DNA of 64,000 nt, from positions 41,136-105,135 of IMG/VR virus record IMGVR_UViG_3300044970_000539; one strand, written 5' to 3'. This DNA comes from a virus. Shown here piece by piece: positions 4,348-30,809 of this stretch. Every line of letters begins with the position of its first letter. Position 1 is the first letter of the stretch. Both the position numbers and the translations under genes were made by a program. The notes below the pieces were generated by a model. It was not told the DNA's origin, ran no database searches, and worked only from the letters and a program-made list of their open reading frames with translations.

Positions 4348-4378
4348 AGAGACCTAGGCATGTCTTTATAAACTGCCC
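4348..4378 (+). ncRNA. Conserved H-type pseudoknot element, copy 1
   Basis: AGAGAC-CTAGGCAT-GTCTTT-ATAAAC-TGCCC. Confidence 0.6.
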
Positions 4379-4399
4379 CTTAATATTAGGAGATAAAAA

Positions 4400-5203
4400 A
4401 TGGCAGCAAAGGGTAGTCTAGAAGCAATCATTGAGGTTGCAAAGAAAGAAGTAGGAACTATTGAAGGTCCTAAAGATAACGAGACAAAGTATGGTAAATG
4501 GACTGGAATGAACTTCCAACCGTGGTGCCAATCATTTGTTTCGTGGTGTGCATTCACATCTGGTTTAGATGCAAAGAAGTATCCAAAGTCTGCATCAACA
4601 GTAGCAGCATCAGATTGGTTTAAAAAGAATGATCGCTGGGCAGATGCTCGTAATGATGATCCAACTCCAGGAGACTGGATTTATTTTGATTTTCCAGAAG
4701 ATGGTGTAAACCGTATTTCACATGTTGGTATTTGTATTAAAAATAATGGAAACGGAACTATCCAAGTTATTGAAGGCAACACTTCAGGAACTGCAAAGGG
4801 AGACCAAAGAAATGGCGGAATGTGCGTAGAAAAGACTCGTGCATACGTTAAGGAAAATAAGTTAAAACTTATCAATGGAATTGTTGGTTGGGGTCGTCCA
4901 GTTTATGCTGGTGAAGAAAACCTTCCACTTCTTTCTAAGGTTGGATCATCTGATGCTCCAGTTAAAAAATCTGCTCCAGCCTCTTCAACACCTTCAGCAC
5001 CTGCAGTTAAGAAAGAGTTTAAGCAGTTTAAAGAAGGAGCAAAAGGTTCACCTGTTAAAAAGATTCAAGAAGCACTTGGCTTAAAGGCTGATGGAGTTTT
5101 TGGTCCAGGAACATCTAAAGCAGTTAAAGATTTTCAATCTAAGTCTAAACTTCCAGCAACTGGAATTGTAGATTTAAAAACATATAAGGCTATTTTGAAG
5201 TAA
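4400..5203 (+). CDS. Endolysin: CHAP amidase plus C-terminal peptidoglycan-binding domain
   Basis: PWCQSFVSW, HVGI, IEGNT; ADGVFGPGTSKAVKDFQ...TGIVD. Confidence 0.9.
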   Translation: MAAKGSLEAIIEVAKKEVGTIEGPKDNETKYGKWTGMNFQPWCQSFVSWCAFTSGLDAKKYPKSASTVAASDWFKKNDRWADARNDDPTPGDWIYFDFPEDGVNRISHVGICIKNNGNGTIQVIEGNTSGTAKGDQRNGGMCVEKTRAYVKENKLKLINGIVGWGRPVYAGEENLPLLSKVGSSDAPVKKSAPASSTPSAPAVKKEFKQFKEGAKGSPVKKIQEALGLKADGVFGPGTSKAVKDFQSKSKLPATGIVDLKTYKAILK

Positions 5204-5388
5204 TGCCAGTATATGAATACAAATGCACAGGACAATGTTCTGAAATTGTAATCAAACAAAGATCTATTAAGGATAGCGATCCAGGGTATGAGTGTGAAAC
5301 TTGCACTCTACCACTGGAACGTGTATACTCTAATGTAACAGCAGTATTCAACGGTAGTGGATTTTATTCCACTGATAACAGAAAGTAG
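5203..5388 (+). CDS. FmdB-family zinc-ribbon protein
   Basis: MPVYEYKC...CETC...FNGSGFYSTD. Confidence 0.85.
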   Translation: MPVYEYKCTGQCSEIVIKQRSIKDSDPGYECETCTLPLERVYSNVTAVFNGSGFYSTDNRK

Positions 5389-5397
5389 CGGTATACT

Positions 5398-5652
5398 ATG
5401 AACATGACAATGACAAAAGAAGTTGTTCAAGAAGAGTGGATTTTAAATGCAACAGACAGATGTGATGCTTGTGCAGCAGAAGCCCTTGTAAAGGTAACTG
5501 GATTATCTGGAGACTTAATGTTTTGTGGACATCACTACAACAAGATTATGGATAATAAAGAAGGGTATAAGAAGATGATTTCTTTTGCACTTTCAGTTGT
5601 TGATGAACGACATAAACTTATTGAAAACAAGTCAAAGGGGCAAGATTACTAA
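5398..5652 (+). CDS. Small Zn-binding hypothetical protein (actinobacterial type)
   Basis: DRCDAC...LMFCGHH. Confidence 0.7.
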   Translation: MNMTMTKEVVQEEWILNATDRCDACAAEALVKVTGLSGDLMFCGHHYNKIMDNKEGYKKMISFALSVVDERHKLIENKSKGQDY

Positions 5653-6059
5653 TGTATGAATACTATGTAAGAAAAGTAGAGAACGTAGTAGATGGAGACA
5701 CTATTGACGTTATTATTGATTTAGGGTTTGATATCTTGTTTGCATCTCGTGTAAGGTTGGCTGGGATCGATACCCCAGAGTCTCGCACAAAAGATCTTGC
5801 TGAAAAGGCTCTTGGACTTGAAGCCAAGGAGTACTTAAAGAAGTCTTTAAAGGACGCTAAGTCTGTTGTTATTAAGACTGAGAAGATGGACTCATCTGAA
5901 AAGTATGGTCGTATTTTAGGTTGGGTATATGTAGATGACAACACTGTTTCACTTAACGACATGATGATTAATGATGGCTATGCCTGGGGATATCTTGGAG
6001 ATACAAAGGTTAAAGATTTTACAGCCCTTGCAAAAGCCAGAAAAAAGTCTGGAAAATGA
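5652..6059 (+). CDS. Thermonuclease (SNase-like)
   Basis: VVDGDTID, RVRLAGIDTPE, KYGRILG. Confidence 0.92.
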   Translation: MYEYYVRKVENVVDGDTIDVIIDLGFDILFASRVRLAGIDTPESRTKDLAEKALGLEAKEYLKKSLKDAKSVVIKTEKMDSSEKYGRILGWVYVDDNTVSLNDMMINDGYAWGYLGDTKVKDFTALAKARKKSGK

Positions 6060-6913
6060 AAAAAAATTTAACTTTGGCAAAAATAATAAAAGAAAATAGT
6101 TTTTCTAATTTTACAGAATTTGAAAAAATAATATCAATGAAATACACTAATTTTTTTAACGCCAAAATAAAAGAAAAAGAACTTAATAAAAATTTTATAG
6201 AACCAAATAATTTAATTTTTATGAATGATGGATATGCAGAAATAGACGAAAATGGTTATCCTTACGATTCACAAAAAATAAAAAATATTTTATTAAATCC
6301 AAAATTTATTCAATTTAAATATCAAATAAATTTATACAAAAGATTATTAAATTTTGCTGATATTCAAAACAATAAAAATGTAAAAGTTTTAATAGATGTA
6401 GGTTGCGGTAAAGGTGGAGGAATTTCTTTTTATAAACAGTTTTATAATTTTGATAAATGTATTGGAATTGATTTAACTAAAATAAATATAGAGTTAGCAA
6501 AACAACACGAAAAAAATGTTTCTTTTTATGTTGCTTCTGCAACTAATCTTCCTATAAATGATAAAACAGTAGATGTAATCACATCTGTTGAATCTTTGAT
6601 GTATTACGACCCACTTATCAAATTTATTGAAGAGGCTAGGCGAGTTCTAAAAAACAATGGGAAATTTTTAATATCAATGCCATTGACCGAACAAGAAGAA
6701 AATAACTTAGAAGAGTCATTTACTAACAATGGGTTTATATTAAGTAAAAAAGAAGATATAACAGAAAATGTAAGAATGGCTTGTGCAATATCAAAAAATA
6801 GGTTTAGAAATTCTTCATTTCAAGAATCAGAAATTATGAGAAATGATGAAGAGAGATATTTCAACAAAACCGTATTTTACAAAAATTTTGTATTTATTAA
6901 AAAGGGCGATTAA
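6056..6913 (+). CDS. Class I SAM-dependent methyltransferase (very AT-rich, moron-like)
   Basis: LIDVGCGKGG, IGIDL, ATNLP, RVLKNNGKF. Confidence 0.85.
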   Translation: MKKNLTLAKIIKENSFSNFTEFEKIISMKYTNFFNAKIKEKELNKNFIEPNNLIFMNDGYAEIDENGYPYDSQKIKNILLNPKFIQFKYQINLYKRLLNFADIQNNKNVKVLIDVGCGKGGGISFYKQFYNFDKCIGIDLTKINIELAKQHEKNVSFYVASATNLPINDKTVDVITSVESLMYYDPLIKFIEEARRVLKNNGKFLISMPLTEQEENNLEESFTNNGFILSKKEDITENVRMACAISKNRFRNSSFQESEIMRNDEERYFNKTVFYKNFVFIKKGD

Positions 6914-6915
6914 AA

Positions 6916-7143
6916 TTGATGGATATAAAAAGTCAAGCCTTATTAGAGCATTTAATTATTCAAGGTGCAATTGAGATATCTGGTATTGATCAATCTGGTG
7001 AGATGACATACTCAATTACTGATAAGTTACAAGAGGTTCATCCAGAACTATACATGCAACTTAAAGATGAGTTTGAACATAACATGTTTGAAATGATAGA
7101 TCAAGGACCAAAGGTTATGACGTGGAAGATTAGGACAAGATAA
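6916..7143 (+). CDS. Hypothetical protein (paralogue of 7394..7723)
   Basis: Shared LI.GA.E..G.D...GE..Y.IT.K.QEV.P..Y motif. Confidence 0.7.
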   Translation: MMDIKSQALLEHLIIQGAIEISGIDQSGEMTYSITDKLQEVHPELYMQLKDEFEHNMFEMIDQGPKVMTWKIRTR

Positions 7144-7401
7144 ATGAATATGATTCTTTATTTTACTGCTGATTGGTGTAACCCTTGTAAAAAAACAAAG
7201 CCAATTGTTGAAGAGTTAAATCGTGAACAAATTATGGCTAAATTCTTTATAGTTGACGTTGATTCAGAGATTGAGATGACTAAAGATTTTGAGATTAGAT
7301 CTGTTCCTACTTTTGTAGTAATGAAGGATAATACTGAGATTTATCGTGTAACTGGTGCACAAACAAGGCAACAGTTAGAGGAGTTAATTAGATATGAATA
7401 A
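7144..7401 (+). CDS. Thioredoxin
   Basis: FTADWCNPCK, IRSVPTF. Confidence 0.92.
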   Translation: MNMILYFTADWCNPCKKTKPIVEELNREQIMAKFFIVDVDSEIEMTKDFEIRSVPTFVVMKDNTEIYRVTGAQTRQQLEELIRYE

Positions 7402-7723
7402 CAATGAAGATGAACTAATCAAAAATCTTATACTTGAAGGTGCCCTAGAAGTGGCTGGAGTAGATTCAGAAACAAATGAACTTTTGTATACTATTACTCC
7501 AAAAATGCAAGAGGTCATGCCAGATATGTATGAAGACCACCTAACTCAAGTAAATAGGGATCTTTTAAATTTATGGGAAAAGGGTTATGTTAATATTGAT
7601 TTTTTACTAGCAGATCCAGTAGTTACAATATCTGAAAAAGGTCTTGATAAGGCTGAGGTTGCTAAATTAACCAAGCCAGAAATCTGGGCACTAGAAGAGG
7701 TAAAGAGATTACTAAAAAGGTAA
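7394..7723 (+). CDS. Hypothetical protein
   Basis: ORF; paralogue of 6916..7143. Confidence 0.75.
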   Translation: MNNNEDELIKNLILEGALEVAGVDSETNELLYTITPKMQEVMPDMYEDHLTQVNRDLLNLWEKGYVNIDFLLADPVVTISEKGLDKAEVAKLTKPEIWALEEVKRLLKR

Positions 7724-7761
7724 AGTCTGATATAATCAGTATATAAACTAGGAGGATTGTT

Positions 7762-8511
7762 ATGCCATACAGAGTTGGAGCCAAAGGTTCTTTTGGGTGT
7801 TCTGGATACCCTGCACTAAAAGAAGGCACAAATGAAGTTATGGGTTGCCACACAACCCGTGCTGAGGCTGCTGCACAGATTTATGCAATCAATCGCTCTG
7901 AAGGCAACATAGGGAAAAGTATGAATGAAATTAAAGAGGGTGATTTCGTTATGGGAATGACCTCTGAAGGAATGGTTCACGGAATTGTTGAGCACATTAT
8001 GATAGAAGGCGGAGTCTATGGGGTTCCTGGAACAGAATATGCAATTCAGTCTATGCCACCAGAAAATCCAGCAATGGCTGTTAGAATTTATGAAGAAGAA
8101 GATGGTAAGTGGGAGCCAACCGCATATAGTATTGGAATGATGTACAAGGATGCACAGGTTGTAGATATAAACAACCACACTATGGAAGATGATAAAGAAG
8201 AAATGGATTCAGAAGTTGCAATGGCAATGTATGATTCATCAATTGGAAAATCAGAAGAAAAGGAAGATGAAATGGAAAAAGCAAAAAAGCCTAACTATGG
8301 TGAAATGATTCAACCACGTCGTGGTGGATCAACACCTTCTAATCCAAGACTTTATGCAAGAGTTGTGCAGGCAGCAAAAGATAAATTTGATGTGTATCCA
8401 TCTGCAGTTGCAAACTCTTGGGTTGTTCAAGAATACAAGCGTCGTGGTGGAACATATAAGTCTGAAAAATCAGCAGAGTTGGATAATTTTTGGAATGGAT
8501 TTTTAAAATAA
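7762..8511 (+). CDS. Hypothetical protein, possible internal head protein
   Basis: GGAGG RBS; C-terminal YPSA.AN.WVVQEYKRRGGTY domain; KS/KA motifs. Confidence 0.7.
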   Translation: MPYRVGAKGSFGCSGYPALKEGTNEVMGCHTTRAEAAAQIYAINRSEGNIGKSMNEIKEGDFVMGMTSEGMVHGIVEHIMIEGGVYGVPGTEYAIQSMPPENPAMAVRIYEEEDGKWEPTAYSIGMMYKDAQVVDINNHTMEDDKEEMDSEVAMAMYDSSIGKSEEKEDEMEKAKKPNYGEMIQPRRGGSTPSNPRLYARVVQAAKDKFDVYPSAVANSWVVQEYKRRGGTYKSEKSAELDNFWNGFLK

Positions 8512-8645
8512 TGCCAAAGAAAAAAGCACAATCATTTAATGCAACACAAATCAAAGATGGAAAGATTGTACGCATGAATAAAAACGGTACAGTTAAATCT
8601 ATTATTGGTCCTTATGAAGTGAAGCATCCAAAGAAGGGTAAGTAA
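8511..8645 (+). CDS. Small basic hypothetical protein (44 aa)
   Basis: TAATG overlaps with both neighbours. Confidence 0.6.
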   Translation: MPKKKAQSFNATQIKDGKIVRMNKNGTVKSIIGPYEVKHPKKGK

Positions 8646-9016
8646 TGGCAGATACATATTCACCTAATGCAGGCATGAAGGCTGCTGCAAGACGTGCTTT
8701 GAAGTGGAAAGAAGATGGAAAGGCAACAGGGGCTGGAACTCCAGTAGGTTGGGGCAGAGCAACAGATATTGTTAGCGGTGCATCTATGTCTCTTGATACT
8801 GTCAAAAGAATGTACTCTTTCTTTTCACGTCATGAAGTAGATAAAAAAGGTAAAGGTTTCTTTGATGGACCAGAGTTTCCATCAAATGGAAGAATAATGT
8901 GGGACGCATGGGGCGGAGATGCAGGTTTTGCATGGAGTCGTGCTATCGTTGAACGTGAAAAAAATAAAACAGAAAAGGTTTGGCAAGGAAGTCCATTTAG
9001 TTTTAAGGGGGAATAA
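8645..9016 (+). CDS. Hypothetical protein, possible head-associated protein
   Basis: TVKRMYSFFSRH...WDAWGGDAG domain typical of phage head-region proteins. Confidence 0.7.
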   Translation: MADTYSPNAGMKAAARRALKWKEDGKATGAGTPVGWGRATDIVSGASMSLDTVKRMYSFFSRHEVDKKGKGFFDGPEFPSNGRIMWDAWGGDAGFAWSRAIVEREKNKTEKVWQGSPFSFKGE

Positions 9017-9018
9017 AT

Positions 9019-9198
9019 ATGGAAGATTTAACGATTGATGAATTAAGACAACTTCTGACATTCTACAAGCAAAGAGCGTCAGACGTAGAGTTTACATTCT
9101 TACAGACACAGATAAAACTAAATAAGTTTATATCTGATCAATTAATTTCAGATCAAAATGTTTCAAAAAAAGAAACACCAGAAAAAACAACTAAATAA
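9019..9198 (+). CDS. Small coiled-coil hypothetical protein
   Basis: GGGGGA RBS; 59-aa ORF. Confidence 0.6.
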   Translation: MEDLTIDELRQLLTFYKQRASDVEFTFLQTQIKLNKFISDQLISDQNVSKKETPEKTTK

Positions 9199-9210
9199 TT
9201 AGGAGAAAAG

Positions 9211-9627
9211 ATGCAGGCTATTTTGATTATCGGCTTGACATTGATCTCTTTTTCGTCTATAATTATAGTAATGAACAAAAAAAGAAAAAACTCTTTTAAT
9301 AAAATACTATATCGTCAAAGCGATATGCATAATATATTAAAGGATTTTTTCTTTAAAGATATTTTTGATGACAAGGTTGTTACATCTCAGTCTAAAATTT
9401 GGAAAGAGAAACAGACAACCAAGGTAGTCATAATAGATCAAAAGGCATATTGGGTATCAAATAACATGTTCTATGTTGGAGATACAGTAGATGGAAAGGT
9501 CAGACCAGAAACTGGAAGACCTTTAGATACAACCAAGATGTCAAAAAAAGAAGTAGATAAGATGTTATTCATCCTGGATAACTTAAAGAATGGGAAACTA
9601 AATGATAGTGGCAGTGCAGGGAACTAA
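9211..9627 (+). CDS. Hypothetical protein with N-terminal hydrophobic segment
   Basis: AGGAG RBS; ORF. Confidence 0.7.
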   Translation: MQAILIIGLTLISFSSIIIVMNKKRKNSFNKILYRQSDMHNILKDFFFKDIFDDKVVTSQSKIWKEKQTTKVVIIDQKAYWVSNNMFYVGDTVDGKVRPETGRPLDTTKMSKKEVDKMLFILDNLKNGKLNDSGSAGN

Positions 9628-9952
9628 TGAGTTTGATGACTATAATCTATTCCTTCGTGCTATAAGCGTTGCTTTATCTGGAATGAAAGAAGAAGAAAAA
9701 GATTTTATAATTTATTCTGTTGGTCCAACAAGGGTCAACTCTTTTGTTTCAGAGTTTTCAAACCTTTCAGAAAGAGGAATGAAAGCAAGGGGTCGTAAGA
9801 TAAAGTTTTATAAAGTTCCAGAAAGTTGGGTACATGACAACATGGACAGCGTAAACTATTTTGCATTTCTTAGCAAACCAAAAGAGCCAGTATCCAAACT
9901 AACTACTTTTGCAGAATCAAAAAATGTAGAAGTAGGAATATTCCGTTACTAA
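9602..9952 (+). CDS. Hypothetical protein, possibly SLOG/YspA-like
   Basis: N-terminal IVAVQGTNEFDDY resembles SLOG-family starts. Confidence 0.5.
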   Translation: MIVAVQGTNEFDDYNLFLRAISVALSGMKEEEKDFIIYSVGPTRVNSFVSEFSNLSERGMKARGRKIKFYKVPESWVHDNMDSVNYFAFLSKPKEPVSKLTTFAESKNVEVGIFRY

Positions 9953-9965
9953 AAGAAAGAATACA

Positions 9966-10175
9966 ATGATAATTAATTCGTTAGCACAAATGGAAAAGAT
10001 TGTTTCAAAGAACAAAGAACTTGAATGGGTTGGCTGGGATGTTGTTGAACGCAAGCGATCAGACCTTGCAAGAACATCACCAAGCGGAGTTCGTGTAAAA
10101 AATGCATGGTACCTACAAAAAACTTTTAACCTTAATCGTAATGGTTGGGATATTCCAAACAAATACGGTCAGTAA
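9966..10175 (+). CDS. Hypothetical protein
   Basis: ORF in operon. Confidence 0.7.
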   Translation: MIINSLAQMEKIVSKNKELEWVGWDVVERKRSDLARTSPSGVRVKNAWYLQKTFNLNRNGWDIPNKYGQ

Positions 10176-10460
10176 ATGAAGCAACATTTATGGAAAGATC
10201 AAGCAGCGTGTCTTGGTCTTGATACTAATATCTTTTTTGATAAGTATGAAGACAATGTAGATGTGCGCCCAATTGTAGATTCAATGTGCCAAAGGTGTCC
10301 AGTATCAAAGGTTTGCTTTGCTAACGGTGTTTCTGGTAAAGAGTACGGTGTATGGGGTGGGGTGTTCCTTGAACTTGGAAATATATCTAGAGAGTTTAAT
10401 AAACACAAAACCAAACAAGACTGGGCTAATACTTGGCAAGCATTGACAATGGAGAAATAA
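10176..10460 (+). CDS. whiB: WhiB-family Fe-S transcription factor
   Basis: W..QAAC...FF...C.RCPV..VC...EYGVWGG. Confidence 0.92.
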   Translation: MKQHLWKDQAACLGLDTNIFFDKYEDNVDVRPIVDSMCQRCPVSKVCFANGVSGKEYGVWGGVFLELGNISREFNKHKTKQDWANTWQALTMEK

Positions 10461-10691
10461 TTGTACACTGATCAAATGCGTAGAGCCTTTCACTCTGTAG
10501 TACCTCCAAAGGGTTTTGCTATAGAGTTAATTGATAATGAACACTTTTTAACTATTAAGTTAAATGAACTTAAGTTTGCAAACATGGTTCATGACGATAA
10601 AATACAGGCTCTTCAATATGTTTTAAATTTAAAGAAAGCATTGGAAATGGAAGGGGCTATCGTCCTAGTAACAAGAGAGGCAATAAAGTGA
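10461..10691 (+). CDS. Hypothetical protein
   Basis: TTG start after GGAG; operon context. Confidence 0.7.
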   Translation: MYTDQMRRAFHSVVPPKGFAIELIDNEHFLTIKLNELKFANMVHDDKIQALQYVLNLKKALEMEGAIVLVTREAIK

Positions 10692-11602
10692 AAATCTTTG
10701 TATCTATTGCATCTTATCGTGATCCAGAACTTCAATGGACAATTAAAAGTGCTATTACAAATGCAAATAATCCAGACAATCTATATTTTGGTGTTGTTCA
10801 TCAGGGAGTTGATTCAGAACTGTTTGATATTCAGGAAATTAAAAACATATCTATAACTAAAATGCATCCAAAAGAAGCAAGAGGTGCAGGATATGCAAGA
10901 GCAAAAGCAATGGAGTTATACTCTGGACAAGAGTATTTTCTTCAAATTGATTCACATACTAGATTTGTTCCTGGTTGGGACTCTATATCTATTGATCAGT
11001 TGAATAGGGCTAAGAATATATCTGGCCATAGTCGTGTATTGTTATCATACTTTCCTGCCCCGTTTGAGCCAGAAAGAAATGGCGGTATGTATTTAATTAC
11101 AAACAACCCAAAAGTAAAGCCATATCCAACTAGACAAAAGATATCATTAAATAAAAGAAAACAGTGGACAGCAGAAAGACTTGAGTTTAATAACAAACTA
11201 AAAGAAGATCCAGAACTTTCTGAAACAGTTCTTGGTGGCTTTATGTTTTCAGATGGTTCAATAGTTAGTGAAGTTCCTTATGATTCAGAAATTAGTTTCT
11301 TTGGTGAAGAGATTTGTTTTGCTATGAGATCATGGACAAGAGGATGGGATATATATTCTCCTTCAAAAAATATTGTATACCACTTTTATTCTCGTGGAGG
11401 ATACAGTAAGATATGGAAAGATAGAAATCTACGTGGAATATCTTGGAAAGAGTTAGAAGAAATATCATACAACAAACAAAAAAGAATTCTTTGTGGTGAA
11501 GAAGAAGGTGTGTTTGGTGCTGGAAACGTTAGAACCCTTGCCGAGTATGAGATCTTTACTAATACTAACTTTAAAGATTTTTATAGTTTGACAAAACCTT
11601 AG
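10688..11602 (+). CDS. GlcNAc-transferase (GT60 / Skp1-hydroxyproline GlcNAc-transferase-like)
   Basis: IFVSIASYRDPEL, ARG.GYAR, YFLQIDSHTRF..GWD, F.GEE...R.WT.GWDIY.P. Confidence 0.85.
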   Translation: MKIFVSIASYRDPELQWTIKSAITNANNPDNLYFGVVHQGVDSELFDIQEIKNISITKMHPKEARGAGYARAKAMELYSGQEYFLQIDSHTRFVPGWDSISIDQLNRAKNISGHSRVLLSYFPAPFEPERNGGMYLITNNPKVKPYPTRQKISLNKRKQWTAERLEFNNKLKEDPELSETVLGGFMFSDGSIVSEVPYDSEISFFGEEICFAMRSWTRGWDIYSPSKNIVYHFYSRGGYSKIWKDRNLRGISWKELEEISYNKQKRILCGEEEGVFGAGNVRTLAEYEIFTNTNFKDFYSLTKP

Positions 11603-11622
11603 TGTTAGGATATAATTAAAAC

Positions 11623-12069
11623 ATGTGGAGTGGTGATATGAAAGATATTTTTATTGTTGTTTTTGCAACATTGTCAGTTTGCTTTGCAGCATCATATATT
11701 TTAGTCTTAGGACAGTCCATTAAACTTAAAAGAGATGTTTCAAAACTTTTTATTGAAAAGACTTTGCTTCAAGAATATGTTGATATAACTAAGTCTACAA
11801 AAATAAAAGAAGATTCAGATGACTCAATACACAAAGAAAACTTTATTAAGTTTCTTTCTGATTCTAGACTATGGGCATTTGAATATATTGAGAATGTACA
11901 AAAAGGTTTAACTAAATTTGTTAATGATGTTGATGCAGACATATCATACTTTGATGAATATGGAGAAGCCTTATCTATGTCAAGACCAGACTATCCATCT
12001 ATGAAGAATATTTCAAAAGCATATAAAGAATTAAAAACACTATTACCAGAAGATGAAATAAAACAATGA
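11623..12069 (+). CDS. Hypothetical membrane-anchored protein
   Basis: N-terminal TM; TTGACA/TATAAT promoter upstream. Confidence 0.7.
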   Translation: MWSGDMKDIFIVVFATLSVCFAASYILVLGQSIKLKRDVSKLFIEKTLLQEYVDITKSTKIKEDSDDSIHKENFIKFLSDSRLWAFEYIENVQKGLTKFVNDVDADISYFDEYGEALSMSRPDYPSMKNISKAYKELKTLLPEDEIKQ

Positions 12070-12224
12070 GAGATATATTGTTGTCAACACTAACAGGTTT
12101 TGGATGTGGTGTAGTATTTGCTGCATTCAAATTGCCAGTTCCAGCACCGCCAGTTTTTGCGGGAGTCGCAGGAATTGTAGGGCTGTGGGCTGGATATGCT
12201 ATACTAATAAAGGTTCTATCCTAG
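12066..12224 (+). CDS. XapX/DUF1427-like small membrane protein
   Basis: GFGCGVVFAAFKLPVPAPPVFAGVAGIVGLWAG. Confidence 0.75.
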   Translation: MRDILLSTLTGFGCGVVFAAFKLPVPAPPVFAGVAGIVGLWAGYAILIKVLS

Positions 12225-12232
12225 GAGGAAAA

Positions 12233-12502
12233 ATGAACACAGAACAACTAAAGGCAGTACTTGCATCATACGGACGTTCAGTCCTTGCATCAGGCCTTGC
12301 ACTATACATGGCAGGCGTAACAGATCCAAAGGATCTATGGACTGCACTTGTTGCTGCAGTTGCGCCAGTTGCAATTAGAGCAATCAACCCTAATGACAAG
12401 GCGTTTGGCGTATTGCCAGATGCTAAGGAAGTAGAGAAGGCTCTTAAGGGTGCAAAGGCACCCGTAAAGAAGGCTGCTAAGAAGGCTGCTCCAAAGAAGT
12501 AA
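12233..12502 (+). CDS. Holin-like membrane protein
   Basis: AGGAGG RBS; two hydrophobic segments, NP.D..FG motif, basic tail. Confidence 0.6.
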   Translation: MNTEQLKAVLASYGRSVLASGLALYMAGVTDPKDLWTALVAAVAPVAIRAINPNDKAFGVLPDAKEVEKALKGAKAPVKKAAKKAAPKK

Positions 12503-12519
12503 TATTTACTTACAGAATT

Positions 12520-12547
12520 GCCAGTCTAGAAATAGGCTGGCTTTTTT
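12520..12547 (+). terminator. Intrinsic terminator
   Basis: GCCAGTCTA-GAAA-TAGGCTGGC followed by T6, between convergent genes. Confidence 0.85.
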
Positions 12548-12550
12548 GTT

Positions 12551-16754: not shown

Positions 16755-16825
16755 TAGACCTAGAAGGTAATGCTCCTTCTTCTCAGGATTAAAAGTCCTG
16801 AGCATCACTTTAATGCTTTAGGTCC
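16755..16825 (-). tRNA. tRNA-Lys(TTT), non-canonical D and T loops
   Basis: GGACCTA/TAGGTCT; CAGGA-CTTTTAA-TCCTG; T-arm GAAGG-AGCATTA-CCTTC. Confidence 0.7.
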
Positions 16826-22415: not shown

Positions 22416-22419
22416 AATC

Positions 22420-23660: not shown

Positions 23661-23802
23661 TACTCTTCTTCCTTCCAAGATACAATTGATAGTTGGTTTA
23701 ATATTTCATTGACAAGGTCTGCTTCATTATCTGATTCAGCCTCGTATCTAAATGTCATGTAATCACCTGTGGGTTCAAAGATGATTTCTACTTTATATTC
23801 GT

Positions 23803-24165
23803 TCATAGGTCTATTCCTTCGCAGTCGTGGGTTTCTTCTTCAAGTGTATCACCGCAGAAATCACATGTCAAGTCTGGTTCTCCTACCATGATTTGAATAA
23901 TAGTATTATCAGGCACAGGCTTCTCACTAAGGAAATAGCCAATGCGATTAACAAATCCCCAGCCGCTCCAGATATAGGTACCGCCATCGTCTCCGTCGCC
24001 ATACATCCAGATGCGGTTTTGTGGCTGGGACTTAATAAACTCTACCTCATCACCATAGGTCTCATACATCAAACCATCAAAGGAGGCATCTATGTCATAT
24101 GAGTTAAGTATAAACTTAAACTGCTCATCTGCTTCTTCAAAGGTCATTTCAATAAGTTTATCCAT
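23803..24165 (-). CDS. Hypothetical protein
   Basis: MYETYG.E...SGW.FVNRIGY motif; C-terminal CxxC. Confidence 0.75.
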   Translation of the reverse strand: MDKLIEMTFEEADEQFKFILNSYDIDASFDGLMYETYGDEVEFIKSQPQNRIWMYGDGDDGGTYIWSGWGFVNRIGYFLSEKPVPDNTIIQIMVGEPDLTCDFCGDTLEEETHDCEGIDL

Positions 24166-24743: not shown

Positions 24744-24747
24744 AATA

Positions 24748-24963: not shown

Positions 24964-25495
24964 TGATTACTCCCCAGCACTTATCGCAGGTAAAGCCATT
25001 AGGTAGGGAAACATCATCAACTCTATCTCCTTCTACCCCATCCCAGCAGGGTACACAAATAACACAATCATCTAAGTAAACACCAATAGTATTCATTAGT
25101 CAAAATACCCTTCTGCCCATAAGCCCTGGAGAAACTGTTGTGCCATTAAGATACCCTCTTTATCATCAGGGTCAGTTATATACTTATATGAATTGTGTAC
25201 AGCATTGCTCATCTTATCTAAATCATCAATGGTATAACCTAACATTATTCTCCCCAATATTCTACTATAAGGTTTAATGCACTACAGATACGGCAATCAC
25301 AAGGGTCTCCCCCCATGTTTTCCATAAATTCAATGTGAGAGAAATTATCCTCACAGATTTGTTCAACAAGGTCTTTTACTGTGTAAGGTTTGAATGTGGT
25401 AGTCATATATTAATTATAGCCGAAATCCTAGAAAAATACAAATCCTTACGTAATCGTAAAGTGTGTTTAATATCACATTGTCGAAAAATTTCTTG

Positions 25496-25569
25496 CGATC
25501 CGTACGGGACTTGAACCCGTGACCTCCACCGTGACAGGGTGGCGAACTAACCAACTATTCTAACGGACC
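25496..25569 (-). tRNA. tRNA-Asp(GTC)
   Basis: GGTCCGT/ACGGATC; CCACC-CTGTCAC-GGTGG; GGTTCAAGTCC. Confidence 0.92.
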
Positions 25570-25573
25570 GTGT

Positions 25574-25601
25574 GAGCAGTTTTAATTCTTACTCAGGAAT
25601 T
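25574..25601 (-). ncRNA. H-type pseudoknot element, copy 2
   Basis: AATTC-CTGAGTAA-GAATT-AAAAC-TGCTC. Confidence 0.7.
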
Positions 25602-25608
25602 TTTTTAA

Positions 25609-26625
25609 TTATGCAATTTGCAAAGTGCTTTGCACAATCTTTAGCAAACGATTTTTTTCTGCATTAATAGCAGGGTCAAAACCACTTGCAGATGCAAGGA
25701 TAGATTCGTTAGAACCACCACGAGCAGAACGGTACCAATCAAGGCGTTCAGTTAGTGCATTGAAAGCACCCCAAGCATTACCAGCAATCATGCCGTTAAA
25801 CTCGCCTGTGTAGATGTCATTGATAACATCAACCTTGTTTTCCCACTTCTTGAAAGCACCCTTAGAATCTTTTTCTGGCTTAGGGTATGCAGCAAGAATG
25901 ATGTCGTTAAATTGCTTAGCAGAAACTTCCTTCTCAATCATAGCCTTAGCCATGAGGTCAAAAGAATCCATGTACTTGTGAGCCATGCCAAGAGTCTCAC
26001 GAGCAACGGCAACCTTACCAGAAGCGGTCTGAGTGTGGCGAATCTTGAAAGATTGCTTGACACCATTCTTTTTCTTAGTAGTGTTTAGTGCAAGATTAAG
26101 AGTGTTAGCGCACACAACACGAACAGGTGTAATGCTTGCTTGAATAGCGATTGAGCCGTCATGTGATGTGTTGATAAGTAAATAAGTCTTTACCTTATCT
26201 GCAACACCGTTAGGGTCTAGGACAGTTTCACGCTCTAGTGCTAATGCACCGAATACGACACGACCACCCTTGATTGAGCCAGCCGTTTCCCAACGACCTC
26301 CACCGTCAAGAATGTTGTCACCGAATGAGAATAAATCTTCATTCTGCATAACATGATAACGCTCACCAACGACACCAAGAATGTCGGTCTGTGAGTTATC
26401 AGTAGGGTTAGTACGCAAAACATACTGGTATGCCTTGTCGCTTGTTAAGTGTGATGGGGTTTCCAAATCTTCCAGACGAACATTCCAATTATTTAGATTG
26501 GCAGCAGCAAGCATTTCGCTTGTTGTTTTTTCTTCTGTAAATACGGTACCCAATCCATGCCAAGCAGGTTCACGAAATGATGCAAAACTTGCTACGCCAT
26601 TTTGTGATTCTAGTTCATGTGCCAT
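25609..26625 (-). CDS. DUF932 / phage-plasmid protein (TIGR03299-like)
   Basis: MAHELE...PAWHGLG, ETAGSIKGG, SHDGS, TPVRVVCANTL, IRHT; AGGAG RBS. Confidence 0.9.
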   Translation of the reverse strand: MAHELESQNGVASFASFREPAWHGLGTVFTEEKTTSEMLAAANLNNWNVRLEDLETPSHLTSDKAYQYVLRTNPTDNSQTDILGVVGERYHVMQNEDLFSFGDNILDGGGRWETAGSIKGGRVVFGALALERETVLDPNGVADKVKTYLLINTSHDGSIAIQASITPVRVVCANTLNLALNTTKKKNGVKQSFKIRHTQTASGKVAVARETLGMAHKYMDSFDLMAKAMIEKEVSAKQFNDIILAAYPKPEKDSKGAFKKWENKVDVINDIYTGEFNGMIAGNAWGAFNALTERLDWYRSARGGSNESILASASGFDPAINAEKNRLLKIVQSTLQIA

Positions 26626-26656
26626 GAGTTTTCTCCTTTTTGTTGTTGTTAATTTA

Positions 26657-26679
26657 AGTATACACGGACGGTCTGACAA
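26657..26679 (-). promoter_or_regulatory. TGTCAG-N10-TANNNT promoter
   Basis: TTGCAT-TTGTCAG ACCGTCCGTG TATACT. Confidence 0.75.
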
Positions 26680-26801
26680 ATGCAAATCGGGATAGTTAAA
26701 CATAGGGCAATTCGGACATTTTTCTTGTGATCTTAAACACATGCTCGTAACTTGACATTGACTGGTCAGCCGTGTCGAAAAATTTTTCAAGGGATTGAGC
26801 G

Positions 26802-26829
26802 GAGCAGTTTTAAAACATGCTCAGGTTTT
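26802..26829 (-). ncRNA. H-type pseudoknot element, copy 3
   Basis: AAAAC-CTGAGCAT-GTTTT-AAAAC-TGCTC. Confidence 0.7.
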
Positions 26830-26844
26830 GTTAGTAGCCCCCTA

Positions 26845-27261
26845 CTAAATATCTACTCTGTCAACACTGGATGACAAATAAGTTACCTCTTCACCATATG
26901 AAACAGAATCAAAATCAATTTCATGAATTGCATTAATTGCTTCTTCTTCATTACGTGCATTGACTGTAATTGAATACTGAACTGAAACTTCCAATTCAAA
27001 TTCTTTTGCTAATTCAAAACCACAGATGTCTGCAATTTCTTGTGCAGTGCTCTCATCAATGGTACCGTTTTCCATTGTTTCCAAGGTCCACTCTTGCATT
27101 TCATTACGCATACGGGAGCGCTCTGCAGCCTCGCCGTATGAGCGCTGAGTTACTTCTTGAATGTGCTTTTCTAATTGCTCAATGCGTGTTTTGTTTTGTA
27201 CTAGTTGTGACTCAAGAAACTCTCGTGTCATGTAGTGATTGTCTATTACTGGTTGGTCCAT
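26845..27261 (-). CDS. Hypothetical coiled-coil protein
   Basis: ORF with own promoter and RBS. Confidence 0.8.
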   Translation of the reverse strand: MDQPVIDNHYMTREFLESQLVQNKTRIEQLEKHIQEVTQRSYGEAAERSRMRNEMQEWTLETMENGTIDESTAQEIADICGFELAKEFELEVSVQYSITVNARNEEEAINAIHEIDFDSVSYGEEVTYLSSSVDRVDI

Positions 27262-27293
27262 GGGGGCCCTCTTTCTGTTAGTTGTTTAATTTA

Positions 27294-27323
27294 ATTATAC
27301 TGGGCACCACTGACAAATGTCAA
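27294..27323 (-). promoter_or_regulatory. TGTCAG-N10-TANNNT promoter with a perfect -35
   Basis: TTGACA-TT-TGTCAG TGGTGCCCAG TATAAT. Confidence 0.85.
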
Positions 27324-27337
27324 GATCCCCTTACGGG

Positions 27338-27364
27338 GAGTAGTTTATACACATACTCAGGTGT
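27338..27364 (-). ncRNA. H-type pseudoknot element, copy 4
   Basis: ACAC-CTGAGTAT-GTGT-ATAAAC-TACTC. Confidence 0.65.
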
Positions 27365-27419
27365 CTCATCTCAGGCATACCTACGCATCATGGCATAGGG
27401 CTTAGCAGAGATAAATTAT

Positions 27420-27845
27420 TTAGAGATAACGAGCAATAGCGTTGTATGTAGAAGTATTAACTACTTCCTCATCTGTCATCTTGAGAATACGAATAGCGTT
27501 CTCAATTTCCTGCTTTTGCTCTAGGTATGAGTGACGACCCATTTGCTCAAACTCACGCTCAGGCTCTACTGGCAGACCTTCTTTAGATACTGTCAGGTCA
27601 AAGTCAATGTTGAGTTGGTTGTTCCATGAGCGATAGTTAGTGCGGAAGTTTTCTGCCTTCTTGATGTTTGCTACTGCATACTCAACAAGTTCCTTCTGCC
27701 ACTTCTCATAAGCCTTCTTATACTTTGCTTCGTTTGCTTCTTGTGAGGTGTAAGACTTTTCTAGTTCTGCTAAACGAGTTTCTAGTGCCTTAATTACCTT
27801 TGGTGTTGCGATTTTTACTGAGATTGATTTTCCGTTTCTTGCCAT
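27420..27845 (-). CDS. Hypothetical protein
   Basis: 141-aa ORF. Confidence 0.8.
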   Translation of the reverse strand: MARNGKSISVKIATPKVIKALETRLAELEKSYTSQEANEAKYKKAYEKWQKELVEYAVANIKKAENFRTNYRSWNNQLNIDFDLTVSKEGLPVEPEREFEQMGRHSYLEQKQEIENAIRILKMTDEEVVNTSTYNAIARYL

Positions 27846-27891
27846 GTGTTTTCTCTTTTCTTTGGTGGTTTAATTGTTAGGGGGTTGTGTT

Positions 27892-27919
27892 GAGCAGTTT
27901 GTATTCATGCTCAGGAATA
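27892..27919 (-). ncRNA. H-type pseudoknot element, copy 5
   Basis: TATTC-CTGAGCAT-GAATA-CAAAC-TGCTC. Confidence 0.7.
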
Positions 27920-27929
27920 AGCAATTAGA

Positions 27930-28094
27930 TTACTTAGCCGTCCAAGTTGTGTATCGGTGTGAGCCATTGACATCTAACTTTACACGAACATTACCATTTG
28001 GTTGTGGGTTAATCTCTACGATTGTTCCTGTTACCTTTGACTTCTGTGTTGTGTATGTGTCGCCTACCTTGTAGGTTGCTGTTGCTACTGACAT
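27930..28094 (-). CDS. Small SH3/KOW-like beta protein
   Basis: YKVGDTY...GTIVEI...VRVKL; AGGAG RBS. Confidence 0.7.
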   Translation of the reverse strand: MSVATATYKVGDTYTTQKSKVTGTIVEINPQPNGNVRVKLDVNGSHRYTTWTAK

Positions 28095-28135
28095 TGTGTT
28101 TCTCCTTTTGTTTAGTGTGTTTTGCTTATGTATTA

Positions 28136-28157
28136 AGTGTAACATTTCCTACTGACA
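28136..28157 (-). promoter_or_regulatory. TGTCAG-N10-TANNNT promoter
   Basis: TGTCAG TAGGAAATGT TACACT. Confidence 0.7.
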
Positions 28158-28309
28158 TTATCAACATTTTTCTGAGATTTCTCACTATTTGAGACGCTCA
28201 GGGGGTGTGAGTTGAGTCACATTAGACAGATTGAGGGCTATTGTCCACCTGCCACGATTAGCATGATTAGTAGCCCTATTCCTGTTGCTATTACTATTTC
28301 CATTTTTCC

Positions 28310-29032
28310 TCATTTCTTTGTTGCTGAGAATACTATGTCACTCTTTGAGTATACACAAAGTGAGCAAGAAACGCAAGCCGAACCCTTAGTGCTAATTAGT
28401 GGTATCTGCTTATTATTCTCAGGACACTTAGCGCCAGGTTTATTTGTTAGGGCTTTCATGTCTGCTTGTCCAATTAGAAAGTTTTTAGCAAGGTATGCTA
28501 ATTTAACTCCATGATCTGTTTTTAATTCCACACCTGTATCTTTATTCTCGCTATCTGTGGAATAGTATAGTGAGAGATTATCAATACCCTTCAACATTAG
28601 GGCGGCACTTTTAACTCTAGTGTAAACCCAGAATTGAATATCAGGATTATTAAGGATGACATGCTTCCATGCGAATGTATAAGTATCGTTAAAGAAGTCT
28701 CCGTCCCAATGGATACGGAATAGCATAGGGGCTTCACGCTTTACACAATCAGCCTTGAAGTCTTTTATCATATCTTCAAGCAATGCTTCAATAGTATCGT
28801 GATCAGCGTCTTTAACTAATTCCCAATTGTGCAATAGGTTTTTCTTTACTGTTGGGAATACTTTTTCCAATTTGCCAGCATAACAAACACTCTCGCATAC
28901 GCTAGTCGCTCCAGGGCATGAATAAGCCTTTCCTGCGGGTAATCCGAAAGTGTTGGCGATACTTGCTTGTTTTCCATTTGGTGTAACTGCATTTGCTACT
29001 TTCCTATCTTTGCTTCTTAGTAGTTTAGTCAT
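28310..29032 (-). CDS. GP88-family (radical-SAM-like, Cys-cluster) protein
   Basis: FGLPA...CPGA...C...CYA, FRIHWDGDF, FWVYTR, C-terminal CxxCxxC. Confidence 0.8.
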   Translation of the reverse strand: MTKLLRSKDRKVANAVTPNGKQASIANTFGLPAGKAYSCPGATSVCESVCYAGKLEKVFPTVKKNLLHNWELVKDADHDTIEALLEDMIKDFKADCVKREAPMLFRIHWDGDFFNDTYTFAWKHVILNNPDIQFWVYTRVKSAALMLKGIDNLSLYYSTDSENKDTGVELKTDHGVKLAYLAKNFLIGQADMKALTNKPGAKCPENNKQIPLISTKGSACVSCSLCVYSKSDIVFSATKK

Positions 29033-29037
29033 GGTGG

Positions 29038-29178
29038 CTACTCTCTTTCTTTCTTTAATTCTAACATAAGGGACTGACATTTTTTTCTATCGTATTTTTT
29101 CTTATTGGGTACGGCAGAGGCAGCGTTAGACCTACGTAATTCCATAAGCCTACGTAATTCCTCTTTGCTTTTCTTCAT
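29038..29178 (-). CDS. Small basic protein (46 aa)
   Basis: ELRRSNAA...NKKKYDRKK; leaderless after TTGACA-17-TAAGAT. Confidence 0.6.
   Translation of the reverse strand: MKKSKEELRRLMELRRSNAASAVPNKKKYDRKKCQSLMLELKKERE
29058..29079 (-). promoter_or_regulatory. TGTCAG-N10-TANNNT promoter
   Basis: TGTCAG TCCCTTATGT TAGAAT. Confidence 0.7.
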
Positions 29179-29286
29179 ACTTAATCTTAGCAGAATCGTG
29201 GAAAAATGTCAAATCTTACGTAAACACGACACGCCCGACTGCGTTCGAAAATTTTGTGCGGGGAAGCACACAAAATCTTTTTTTAA

Positions 29287-29529
29287 TTATTCGTCAGCGT
29301 CTACGTAAACGTAAAGAGAAACTGATTCATCATACTTAAATTGCACAATGTCTTTGTCACCAAAATCGGTTTTATAAGCAACCGCATAGACATCGCCTGT
29401 TTCATCGGATGCAATTCCAAGTACTTCAACAACCTCACCATCAACCATGATTAGATCTTCAATCATTAGTTGATCTGGTGTTAGGCTATCTGCAAATTTT
29501 AATTCCATATTAGATATTGTAACAGTCAT
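29287..29529 (-). CDS. Hypothetical protein
   Basis: ORF. Confidence 0.65.
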   Translation of the reverse strand: MTVTISNMELKFADSLTPDQLMIEDLIMVDGEVVEVLGIASDETGDVYAVAYKTDFGDKDIVQFKYDESVSLYVYVDADE

Positions 29530-29592
29530 TTTAACGAGCCCCCGCAATCATTAGTAGGAATAAAAAGCAGCCTGCAACAAATAAGAATTCTA

Positions 29593-29913
29593 TCACTCAA
29601 GCCCCAATCCTAACTCATAGCCTGCATCCTCTTCGCCATAGTATTCATCTTGTGGCAACCAAAAATCCAAGTGGTGTTGTTCAATGATAGCCCACGCTGG
29701 TGCATGACTCATGCCTTTATAGAATACGCCTTCTGGCATAGCAATAAATCGCATAGCGTCATTCTCATAGTATGCATCAATAGCATCAATGCAAGGTTGC
29801 ACCATGCTTAGCGGTACTGGTGGATAGTGATTACCTTGCAAGTGATAACCAATAGCCTGTTCAAGTGGTAGATCTAAGTTTGTTGCTAGGTCAATTCCTG
29901 TCATGCTTCCCAT
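29593..29913 (-). CDS. Hypothetical protein (HLQGNHYPPVP family)
   Basis: ORF; TAATG overlap. Confidence 0.75.
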   Translation of the reverse strand: MGSMTGIDLATNLDLPLEQAIGYHLQGNHYPPVPLSMVQPCIDAIDAYYENDAMRFIAMPEGVFYKGMSHAPAWAIIEQHHLDFWLPQDEYYGEEDAGYELGLGLE

Positions 29914-30134
29914 TATCGTGTTGTTACCTTTCCCATGCGGTCAATAATTTTTGTGTGCATTTTGCCTGACGGCTCTGATAAATTAATTGTTGAGTACTCA
30001 TTAGCAAACCCGACATCAACAAAGCGTTGGTATGCTTCCACGGCAGTTAAAGCATCTGAGTAACGACCAACCCAATTAGGCTTAGTGCCTGAGTCATAGG
30101 TTACTGTTATTGAGTATAGGTATTCATTATTCAT
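29913..30134 (-). CDS. Hypothetical protein
   Basis: ORF in operon. Confidence 0.7.
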   Translation of the reverse strand: MNNEYLYSITVTYDSGTKPNWVGRYSDALTAVEAYQRFVDVGFANEYSTINLSEPSGKMHTKIIDRMGKVTTR

Positions 30135-30313
30135 TATGCATTCTCCAATGTGTATTCGTTTAATTCATTACTAGCGTACCATTCGCAATACTCATTTTCA
30201 AGTGTCATGCCTTTAACGCACTCACAAAACTCTGAGTCAAACTCCTCATGACCATTACCAAAAAAGAGGACACCCTCATCATAGCAATCATAGCAATCCC
30301 AATTATTCATTTA

Positions 30314-30523
30314 TTAGTCTCCAATCTTTACTGCAAGTATGCGGTATGTATCTTTTAAGTTAAGTGGTGCTGAGTAGTGGGGGCGTACCTGAACACGATA
30401 AGACTCGCAATCTTGATACCATACATCAGACTTTTCTGCTGAGATAATTTCTCCCGTAAGTGTGCGGGACTTATAAGTTTTTCCTACAAGTAGGTTTTCT
30501 ATTGTATAGACATTTGCTGACAT
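30314..30523 (-). CDS. Hypothetical protein
   Basis: GAGG RBS downstream of promoter. Confidence 0.7.
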   Translation of the reverse strand: MSANVYTIENLLVGKTYKSRTLTGEIISAEKSDVWYQDCESYRVQVRPHYSAPLNLKDTYRILAVKIGD

Positions 30524-30555
30524 TTGCCAACCTCTTTCTTTTTGTTGATAATTCT

Positions 30556-30577
30556 ATCCTACCATAGGGGTCTGACA
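30556..30577 (-). promoter_or_regulatory. TGTCAG-N10-TANNNT promoter
   Basis: TGTCAG ACCCCTATGG TAGGAT. Confidence 0.7.
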
Positions 30578-30781
30578 TTTTCTGTTAGACACGCCCAAAG
30601 GTAATAGACTTTCTTTTATTTATTTTTTCTTACTATGTAAGTCTAGCCTATTAGACAAAAAATCTCAAGTTACTTATGAGTAATCTTAAATAGTGAGACG
30701 CTCAAGCCATGTGACAAATCTCACAAATCTAGCCTGTGGATAACTCTGTGGAAGACACGCCCGAACGGGTCGAAAAAATTT

Positions 30782-30809
30782 AAGCAGTTTGAAATCATGC
30801 TTAGGATTT
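30782..30809 (-). ncRNA. H-type pseudoknot element, copy 6
   Basis: AAATC-CTAAGCAT-GATTT-CAAAC-TGCTT. Confidence 0.7.

Follow-up and report, generated by a model that had tools for sequence, protein, structure and literature searches.

Two groups of small viral pseudoknots have been shown experimentally to resist processive enzymes, namely the coremin exoribonuclease-resistant RNA (xrRNA) and knots of the beet western yellows virus (BWYV) type, and the element described here resembles both in fold (PMC6546385, PMC10321173). Coremin stalls Xrn1 and scanning ribosomes and stimulates frameshifting, E. coli included, and the sole natural example of its Watson-Crick variant, xrRNA-WCC, lies 8 nucleotides (nt) past the last open reading frame (ORF) (PMC6546385, PMC10520033, PMC10321173). 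The element in question is an H-type pseudoknot unit of 27-31 nt that occurs six times in a 64,000-nt stretch of phage DNA, positions 41,136 to 105,135 of IMG/VR virus record IMGVR_UViG_3300044970_000539; this whole stretch is referred to as the window, and positions are numbered within it. The closest known folds are coremin, together with its Watson-Crick variant, and the luteovirus frameshift pseudoknots, but the element lacks features that define membership in either group.

The likeness to coremin (xrRNA-C and xrRNA-WCC of beny-, cucumo- and other eukaryotic RNA viruses) is strongest in the first hairpin and the linker. Coremin hairpin 1 (hp1) has 3-5 base pairs (bp) and is closed by C-G (PMC6546385); in an alignment of 145 distinct copies of the phage knot, the junction C:G pair closing the first helix, P1, is invariant (145/145). 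The first loop base of coremin, C or U, acts as L1, and the corresponding base of the phage knot is C. The coremin run ...GAC-G-UUAAAC-UAC has the same spacer as GNNN-UUAAAC-UACUC/UGCUC in the phage knot (consensus U-W-AAAC-URCUC), and both are small BWYV-like H-type knots overall in which loop bases pair past the linker. The two differ in the loop, which is of the YGAD/YGNNAD/GGCG type with a 3-bp second stem (S2) in coremin and an 8-nt CUGAGYAU with a 5-bp S2 in the phage knot, and the L1 of the latter is 2 nt long, unlike that of coremin. The second hairpin (hp2) that coremin requires to stall Xrn1 has no enriched equivalent, a hairpin starting 0-3 nt after the phage knot being found in 27 of 272 copies versus 30-74 at control offsets. 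The hosts of the phage knot are bacteria, without Xrn1, and its layout points to protection of upstream RNA rather than downstream RNA.

The -1 frameshift knots of BWYV and potato leafroll virus (PLRV), about 28 nt long, share with the phage knot a first stem of 4-5 bp, a 2-nt L1, one unpaired junction base and an A-rich L3 able to form minor-groove triples. They start 5-9 nt beyond the ribosomal A-site codon, a spacing similar to that of the phage knot. Luteovirus knots, however, follow slippery heptamers in ORF overlaps while the phage knot follows stop codons in intergenic spacers; the stems have no sequence similarity, and the UGA within the phage knot has no in-frame preference with the upstream ORF, in contrast to the luteovirus frameshift context.

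Six copies of the pseudoknot in one phage genome

In its 27-nt basic form the element reads NNNC-CU-RRRYA-U-GNNN-NWAAAC-URYYY, with CU as L1, a second helix (P2) of 5 bp, NWAAAC as L3 and URYYY as the 3' strand of P2 (P2'). An earlier note made from the letters of the window had listed six copies, and a regular-expression scan of the window recovered exactly these six, each reading as described there in sequence and position. A pairing-aware scan of the whole 105,135-bp genome returned the same six and no other convincing copy, and a covariance model recovered them at 30-44 bits with E values of 5e-7 to 4e-11. The next best model hit (24098-24130, + strand, 17.8 bits) has neither the CCU nor P1 and is antisense to an ORF, and was rejected as a seventh copy. 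A match CCTGAGCA at 16797 (+ strand) was likewise discarded as the reverse strand of a tRNA-like gene.

Copy 1 (4348-4378, + strand; AGAGAC-CT-AGGCA-T-GTCTTT-ATAAAC-TGCCC; 30.4 bits) consists of P1 (4348-4353/4362-4367), L1 (4354-4355), a 4-bp P2 (4357-4360/4374-4377), L2 (4361) and L3 (4368-4373). It lies 21 nt past the stop codon (4324-4326) of an Hsp20-like gene and 21 nt ahead of the endolysin ATG (4400). The transcription start once predicted at this copy goes back to a 10/12 promoter-like match at 4313-4341, and such matches are not above chance in the region. The other five copies are on the - strand. Copy 2 (25601-25574; AATTC-CT-GAGTA-A-GAATT-AAAAC-TGCTC; 43.9 bits) is 7 nt past the stop of a phrog_1221 gene (25609-26715) and, as had been noted, 4 nt ahead of tRNA-Asp(GTC) (25495-25569, - strand). 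Copy 3 (26829-26802; AAAAC-CT-GAGCA-T-GTTTT-AAAAC-TGCTC; 43.1 bits) is 15 nt past the stop of the ORF at 26845-27261.

Copy 4 (27364-27338; ACAC-CT-GAGTA-T-GTGT-ATAAAC-TACTC; 39.7 bits) lies 55 nt past the stop of the ORF at 27420-27845. It is followed by a small hairpin, CCCCGUAAGGGG (27337-27326), and then, 15 nt downstream of the copy, by a promoter-like site TTGACA-18-TATAAT (27294-27323, - strand) that matches the consensus at 12/12 positions; a transcription unit would accordingly end at copy 4. A half-motif, CCTGAGATG (27367-27375, - strand), just upstream of copy 4 resembles a degenerate or incomplete second copy of the element's 5' half. Copy 5 (27919-27892; TATTC-CT-GAGCA-T-GAATA-CAAAC-TGCTC; 41.4 bits) lies 10 nt past the stop of the ORF at 27930-28145 and 46 nt ahead of the next ATG (27845). 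Copy 6 (30809-30782; AAATC-CT-AAGCA-T-GATTT-CAAAC-TGCTT; 40.3 bits), in which the P2 pairing AAGCA/UGCUU is a compensated variant, begins 5 nt past the stop of the ORF at 30815-30967. A frameshift site considered before copy 6 (CTT AAA AAG TAA) is a non-canonical heptamer and is not general; slippery sites were viewed by eye at copy 6 and its L003 homologue only, with no systematic scan for heptamers or -1 ORFs. All six copies are thus in the sense orientation, with stop-to-P1 spacings of 21, 7, 15, 55, 10 and 5 nt for copies 1-6, in agreement with the earlier statement that they lie on the coding strand 5-55 nt after a stop.

Both helices covary in the transcribed strand

Unbiased tests of the pairing came from searches in which one helix was left free. 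With P1 free, the pattern CCTGAGYAT-N6-AAACTRCTC gave at least 120 loci in IMG/VR, and among the matches listed 134 of 135 had the unrequested G plus at least three consecutive P1 pairs. With P2 free, only CCU, G and AAAC fixed and P1 required, 161 hits were obtained and 152 of them had all five P2 pairs; about six hits were expected by chance, and these had 0-2 P2 pairs. P2 pair types that had not been queried were recovered, including GGACA/UGUCC, AGACA/UGUCU, AAAUA/UAUUU, GAACA/UGUUC, GGGCA/UGCCC and GGGUA/UACCC. In the alignment of 145 copies, which was itself selected for pairing, 92.8% of the cells pair, compared with 26-41% for slid partners; changes on both sides were seen at 8 of 10 pairs, and the covariation score was reached by none of 500 shuffles. 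The two scans uphold the covariation of P1 and P2 proposed from the six copies. P1 does always pair, as had been said, but its length, given before as 4-6 nt, is 4 bp as a rule, with a fifth pair in no more than 50 of the 145 aligned copies; L2 consists of one base, which is U in 138 of 161 copies. U-G occupies pair 15:31 in 29 of 145 copies, and since G-U pairs on the sense strand would read as A-C on the opposite one, selection has acted on the sense-strand RNA. The fold is a genuine covarying pseudoknot of the transcribed strand.

These compensatory changes, strand-specific and including G-U pairs, together with the strict co-orientation with genes, point to selection on RNA. We therefore give very little credence to the idea that the copies are DNA-level boundaries for recombination of phage gene modules with an incidental RNA fold, for which one could cite the same 27-mer core in unrelated phages, homing-type endonuclease genes downstream in some loci, and a transcript contig of a related strain that diverges directly after copy 3. 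This last is an aligned piece from a lake that stops at 26801 and whose record continues unlike the window.

Outside the pairing, CCU and AAAC, along with the A16-U30 pair, are invariant in the alignment, and the 5' strand of P2 is RRRYA; CCU and AAAC were demanded by the search pattern, although AAAC recurs in covariance-model hits too. Each helix alone is weak, with nearest-neighbour energies of -0.2 to -4.1 kcal/mol. Conservation of loop and P2 sequence far beyond pairing needs (CCU and AAAC being partly fixed by the search pattern), helices that are thermodynamically weak alone, and a U-rich, G-poor tail that could belong to a protein site would all suit a regulatory role in which the knot is bound by a conserved factor of the host (S1 or the ribosome, RNA polymerase, an Hfq-like or other RNA-binding protein) or by a phage protein. 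The flanks, however, contain no protein family that consistently accompanies the element; carriage by phages of very different phyla and by bacterial mobile elements leaves only a near-universal factor, and base triples as in BWYV/telomerase-type knots explain the invariant bases equally well, so that we consider a binding site rather improbable as the primary role.

Two departures from the basic form were observed. A variant subfamily keeps the same P1 and loop but has ...AAAA(A)GGCUC rather than ...AAAC-UGCUC as L3/P2' (L004:11355-11375, L004:12079-12099, L030:2947-2967, L039:4529-4549 and L081:6205-6240). One copy, L036:3081-3146 (- strand), has an insertion of about 30 nt at the L2 position, between P2 and the 3' strand of P1, and the element therefore tolerates an extra domain there.

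A widespread family missing from Rfam 15

The earlier note had treated the element as a system of one phage. Beyond the six, more than 280 distinct copies come from contigs of uncultured viruses, from cultured phages and from bacterial genomes of many phyla, with covariation in P1 as well as in P2, and one strict pattern alone finds at least 120 loci in IMG/VR and at least 100 in bacterial genomes. The bacterial matches to that pattern number at least 120, at least about 100 of them with correct P1, and come from Saccharibacteria and other Patescibacteria, Firmicutes, Bacteroidota, Proteobacteria, Actinomycetota, Thermodesulfobacteriota, Anaerolineae and others. Cultured phages were found by blastn with a 31-nt copy as query. 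They comprise 85 Staphylococcus aureus phage records (SA13, phiNM4, 88, 29, X2, phiMR11 and more; Phietavirus), Nostoc phage NMeng1, Mycobacterium phage Labelle, Arthrobacter phage Molivia, Synechococcus phages S-EIVl and S-H35, Roseobacter phage SIO1, the crAss-like phages cr7_1 and cr124_1, Bacillus phage Edson and the thermophilic phage D6E. The SA13 copy (33.1 bits) occupies the spacer between the head-morphogenesis gene, which ends 9 nt ahead of it, and the scaffold gene, which begins 57 nt past it. The genes that precede the pseudoknot in Saccharibacteria and other Patescibacteria are small, of DUF7249 (L126, L175, L181) or DUF3768 (L163, L184), an association that suggests carriage on mobile elements rather than by core genes.

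Rfam 15 at gathering scores detected only tRNAs and no family on the elements, and lowering the threshold to E 10 over 25400-31000 gave no match on them either, in line with the earlier impression that no known family fits. Literature searches for literal sequences returned primer coincidences only, and no description of the element emerged from keyword searches on phage pseudoknots or exonuclease motifs. At the least, the element is a widespread, strongly covarying RNA family missing from Rfam 15; it is an uncatalogued family of a known structural kind, whose role would be new for phages if confirmed.

The same searches bear on a small-molecule aptamer or self-cleaving ribozyme, both of which had been raised before. 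The preQ1-I riboswitch (RF00522) is likewise an H-type knot of about 30 nt with a P1 of 4-5 bp and an A-rich L3 ending in C before P2', and the loop bases of the phage knot are invariant. In preQ1-I, however, L2 is about 6 nt long and contains a ligand-pairing C, whereas the single nucleotide of the phage knot leaves no room for a preQ1-type pocket. PreQ1-I sits in 5' leaders of queuosine or transport genes, its P2' overlapping the ribosome-binding site or a terminator, and the phage knot after the stops of varied, unrelated genes; no Shine-Dalgarno sequence is held in its P2', unlike preQ1-I, and the RF00522 covariance model gave no match at the gathering score or up to E 10 (25400-31000). 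None of the Rfam self-cleaving ribozymes (hammerhead, twister, pistol, hatchet, hepatitis delta virus-like) matched the six copies, and separate hammerheads are recruited next to the knot at some loci (see below), which argues against cutting by the knot itself. A preQ1-I-like aptamer and self-cleavage are both scarcely credible on these grounds.

The knot follows stop codons closely

Placement was surveyed in 155 copies. Measured from the nearest same-strand ORF end to P1, the spacing has a floor at 5 nt, with 17 copies at 5 and 13 at 6, a mode of 5-6 and a median of 15 nt; only 3 of 151 copies are closer than 5 nt. The ends of opposite-strand ORFs, at median distances of 136-186 nt, have no such relation. 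The mRNA entry channel of a terminating ribosome ends about 5 nt past the stop codon. A knot starting 5 nt past the stop thus begins about where the channel ends and can stay folded during termination, and the element seems to be placed as near the gene as folding permits. The next same-strand start is mostly 20-36 nt past the knot. Upstream genes include phrog_1221 (17 cases), Hsp20 (7) and head-morphogenesis or minor-head genes (7), and the downstream genes are varied; the element tracks the upstream gene more than the downstream one. A back-up stop function for the UGA of the knot was rejected, in-frame spacings of 7, 10 and 13 nt not being enriched, as was a likeness of P2' to boxA (UGCUCUUUAACAA), the bases following UGCUC not being conserved as in boxA.

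Directly past the knot, position +1 is A in 65% of copies, and positions +2 to +9 are U-rich with 4-13% G, a flank single-stranded in character. A run of at least four T within 12 nt occurs downstream in 62 of 282 copies (22%) versus 11 of 282 (4%) upstream. This excess, along with the position of copy 4 just before the perfect promoter-like site, would favour a transcription pause or termination signal, also among the options raised earlier, in which P2 beside a U tract acts as the terminator hairpin. But a U run is absent from 78% of copies, the next same-strand gene follows within 20-40 nt in about 40%, and transcription has to continue past those copies that lie 4-13 nt ahead of a tRNA or are joined to a hammerhead. 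The stable stem and U tract of an intrinsic terminator are not general features here, the helices being weak, and termination is a highly unlikely explanation of the family.

A class of bacterial loci differs from this layout. In these, a conserved micro-ORF of about 20 codons, M-x-(K/R)-F-x-x-P-R-x-A-H-C-x-E-G-C-...-S, has its UGA stop inside the pseudoknot (CC-UGA-GCA), its own Shine-Dalgarno sequence upstream and an intrinsic terminator downstream, and the differences fall on third codon positions. It was found in bacterial metagenome-assembled genomes of Thermodesulfobacteriota, Aminicenantes, Anaerolineae, Spirochaetota and Actinomycetota (L132:6059-6136, L134, L137, L148, L151, L164, L194:1149-1208, L197, L218, L234 and L240). 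Searches of Pfam and NCBIfam assigned the peptides to no family.

Processing sites lie downstream of the knot

In 15 of 301 copies a tRNA on the same strand begins 4-28 nt past the knot, at no more than 13 nt in 14 of these, and no copy of the 301 has a same-strand tRNA within 30 nt upstream. The downstream tRNAs are mostly Asp, with Val, Gly and Leu in other phages, and the layout occurs in related and unrelated phages. If RNase P cleaves at the 5' end of tRNA-Asp in the window, the upstream RNA would end 4 nt past copy 2.

The same asymmetry was observed with hammerhead ribozymes. Hammerhead cores are located directly past the knot in two bacterial metagenome-assembled contigs, and a scan of IMG/VR for knot-N10-40-CUGAUGA identified 14 loci, of which about 10 are type III hammerheads; the mirror scan, CUGAUGA-N15-45-knot, gave 25 loci with no hammerheads, coding C-termini being found instead. 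In the type III hammerheads, stem III starts with the final bases of the knot or soon beyond them, and the GUC/GUA cut lies 5-21 nt downstream. RF00008 matches abut the knot in L139 (two), L190 (two), L245, L248, L250 and L252 (E 4e-8 to 8e-3), and Hammerhead_3 matches adjoin the knot with an overlap of at most 2-3 nt and do not cover it. Given that tRNAs and hammerheads follow and never precede it, cleavage leaves the knot with the upstream product, at its 3' end and with a tail of a few nt.

This arrangement bears on whether the knot could be a 5'-to-3' roadblock like the xrRNAs of eukaryotic viruses, halting RNase J, RNase E scanning from the 5' end, Rho or post-stop ribosomes and so protecting or insulating downstream RNA. 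The elements in common with coremin GUCCGAAGACGUUAAACUAC, namely a 4-bp C-G-closed hairpin and a UUAAAC linker followed by U-R-C, speak for such an activity, and so does the position ahead of the scaffold and major capsid genes in S. aureus phages; copy 1 may, by its promoter-consensus match only, sit at a transcript start. Yet hammerhead or tRNA cleavage detaches the knot from the downstream RNA and would leave that RNA without protection. The hp2 of coremin has no enriched counterpart, no promoter signal was seen upstream of the copies in general, and the named carrier hosts include Proteobacteria, many of which lack RNase J. We consider a roadblock of this polarity unlikely.

A proposed role at mRNA 3' ends

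The data support a cis element of phage messages, and among the functions suggested in the earlier note the exonuclease-blocking or processing-linked option fits, while termination, aptamer and self-cleavage do not. We propose that the knot, as a cap or bulkhead, shelters mRNA 3' ends from 3'-to-5' decay, a reading built on fold and layout that we hold about as readily as we doubt it. P1 (4 bp) and P2 (5 bp) would be coaxially stacked, with the 2-nt L1 (CU) spanning the deep groove of P2 and the A-rich 6-nt L3 running along the minor groove of P1. Transcribed within the phage message, the knot would fold just past the footprint of the ribosome terminating on the upstream gene. A downstream cut, made by RNase P at a tRNA, by a fused hammerhead or presumably by an endonuclease in the G-poor, U-rich flank, would then leave the knot at, or a few nt from, the new 3' end. 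There the cap, or a bulkhead in uncut polycistronic RNA, would keep 3'-to-5' exonucleases out of the upstream coding region.

Several described 3' structures offer precedents of different build. Repetitive extragenic palindromic (REP) elements (malE-malF), puf operon hairpins and terminator stems are likewise located after cistrons, stop 3'-to-5' exonucleases and set segment stability; they are simple, usually G+C-rich hairpins without conserved loops, whereas the phage knot is conserved in sequence across phyla. In the eukaryotic nuclear long noncoding RNAs MALAT1 and MEN-beta, a triple helix immediately precedes a tRNA-like element that RNase P cuts, so that a compact triplex-type structure a few nt before the RNase P site makes a protected 3' end. 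That structure, a U-A-U triple helix on an A-rich tail, is a different fold with no sequence relation to the phage knot.

A number of observations weigh against the cap. Each helix alone is weak, and the strength would have to come from base triples, other tertiary contacts or a bound factor; ring-type xrRNAs topologically protect against 5'-to-3' enzymes, not against 3'-to-5' ones. A tRNA follows only about 5% of copies, many of the tRNA-Asp cases come from related phages and are not independent, and hammerhead fusions were found at about 10 IMG/VR loci plus L139 and L190; where neither is present, the cut would have to come from the putative endonuclease. At the micro-ORF loci, with the stop inside the knot and a terminator after it, a cap looks redundant, and the idea does not account for this class. 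Lake-water metatranscriptomes hold related sequence, all of it as assembled contigs of related strains. One lake contig begins at 27889, 3 nt past copy 5, a weak hint and not end mapping, but other lake contigs bridge copy 5.

A more specific form of the 3'-end proposal, which we put forward only tentatively and regard as somewhat doubtful, is that the knot is the prokaryotic counterpart of the coremin-type xrRNA fold, defining and protecting phage mRNA 3' ends as terminator-free message punctuation. If so, one minimal, mechanically tough pseudoknot would serve eukaryotic RNA viruses as well as phages of many phyla, and the likeness to coremin would link the evasion of RNA decay in the two. 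If the cap holds, phages across bacteria would share a 27-nt module setting message ends and segment lifetimes, an undescribed layer of control. Its size suits direct structural and single-molecule work, and the element could provide a simple annotation marker for gene or transcript ends in uncultured phages and possibly a portable mRNA-stabilising part.

The carrier genome and neighbouring sites

The carrier is a siphovirus-like phage with a 105-kb genome of 36.9% G+C. Its tape-measure protein of 3,198 residues (L121; positions 5224-14820 of the contig, outside the window) points to a tail of exceptional length, and its DnaE-type polymerase is about 55% identical to those of Streptomyces phages. 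The genome also encodes a DnaB-like helicase, a UvsX-like recombinase, portal, protease and endolysin, and 7-8 tRNAs; sigma-70-like promoter matches are present, and no RNA polymerase gene was found among the proteins scanned. Megablast and blastn of a 5.6-kb region against INPHARED returned only tRNA and weak gene matches and no close phage. The eighth tRNA-like gene (16755-16825, - strand; Rfam 44 bits), not called by ARAGORN, lies inside the Arg-Ile-Met tRNA cluster.

A motif (A/T)TTTTTCGAC occurs four times in the window versus 0.42 expected, at 25480-25488, 26774-26782, 30769-30777 and 33003-33011, all on the - strand, and may be a phage promoter or regulator site. Three of these sites follow pseudoknot copies at a short distance, one after copy 2 and its tRNA, one after copy 3 and one after copy 6. 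Perfect DnaA boxes (TTATCCACA / TGTGGATAA) at about 30730-30745 and at 33014-33023, both on the - strand, adjoin two of the TTTTTCGAC motifs, and the related contigs L081 and L186 have DnaA boxes at the same place. The DnaA boxes together with TTTTTCGAC may mark an origin or a DnaA-controlled promoter.

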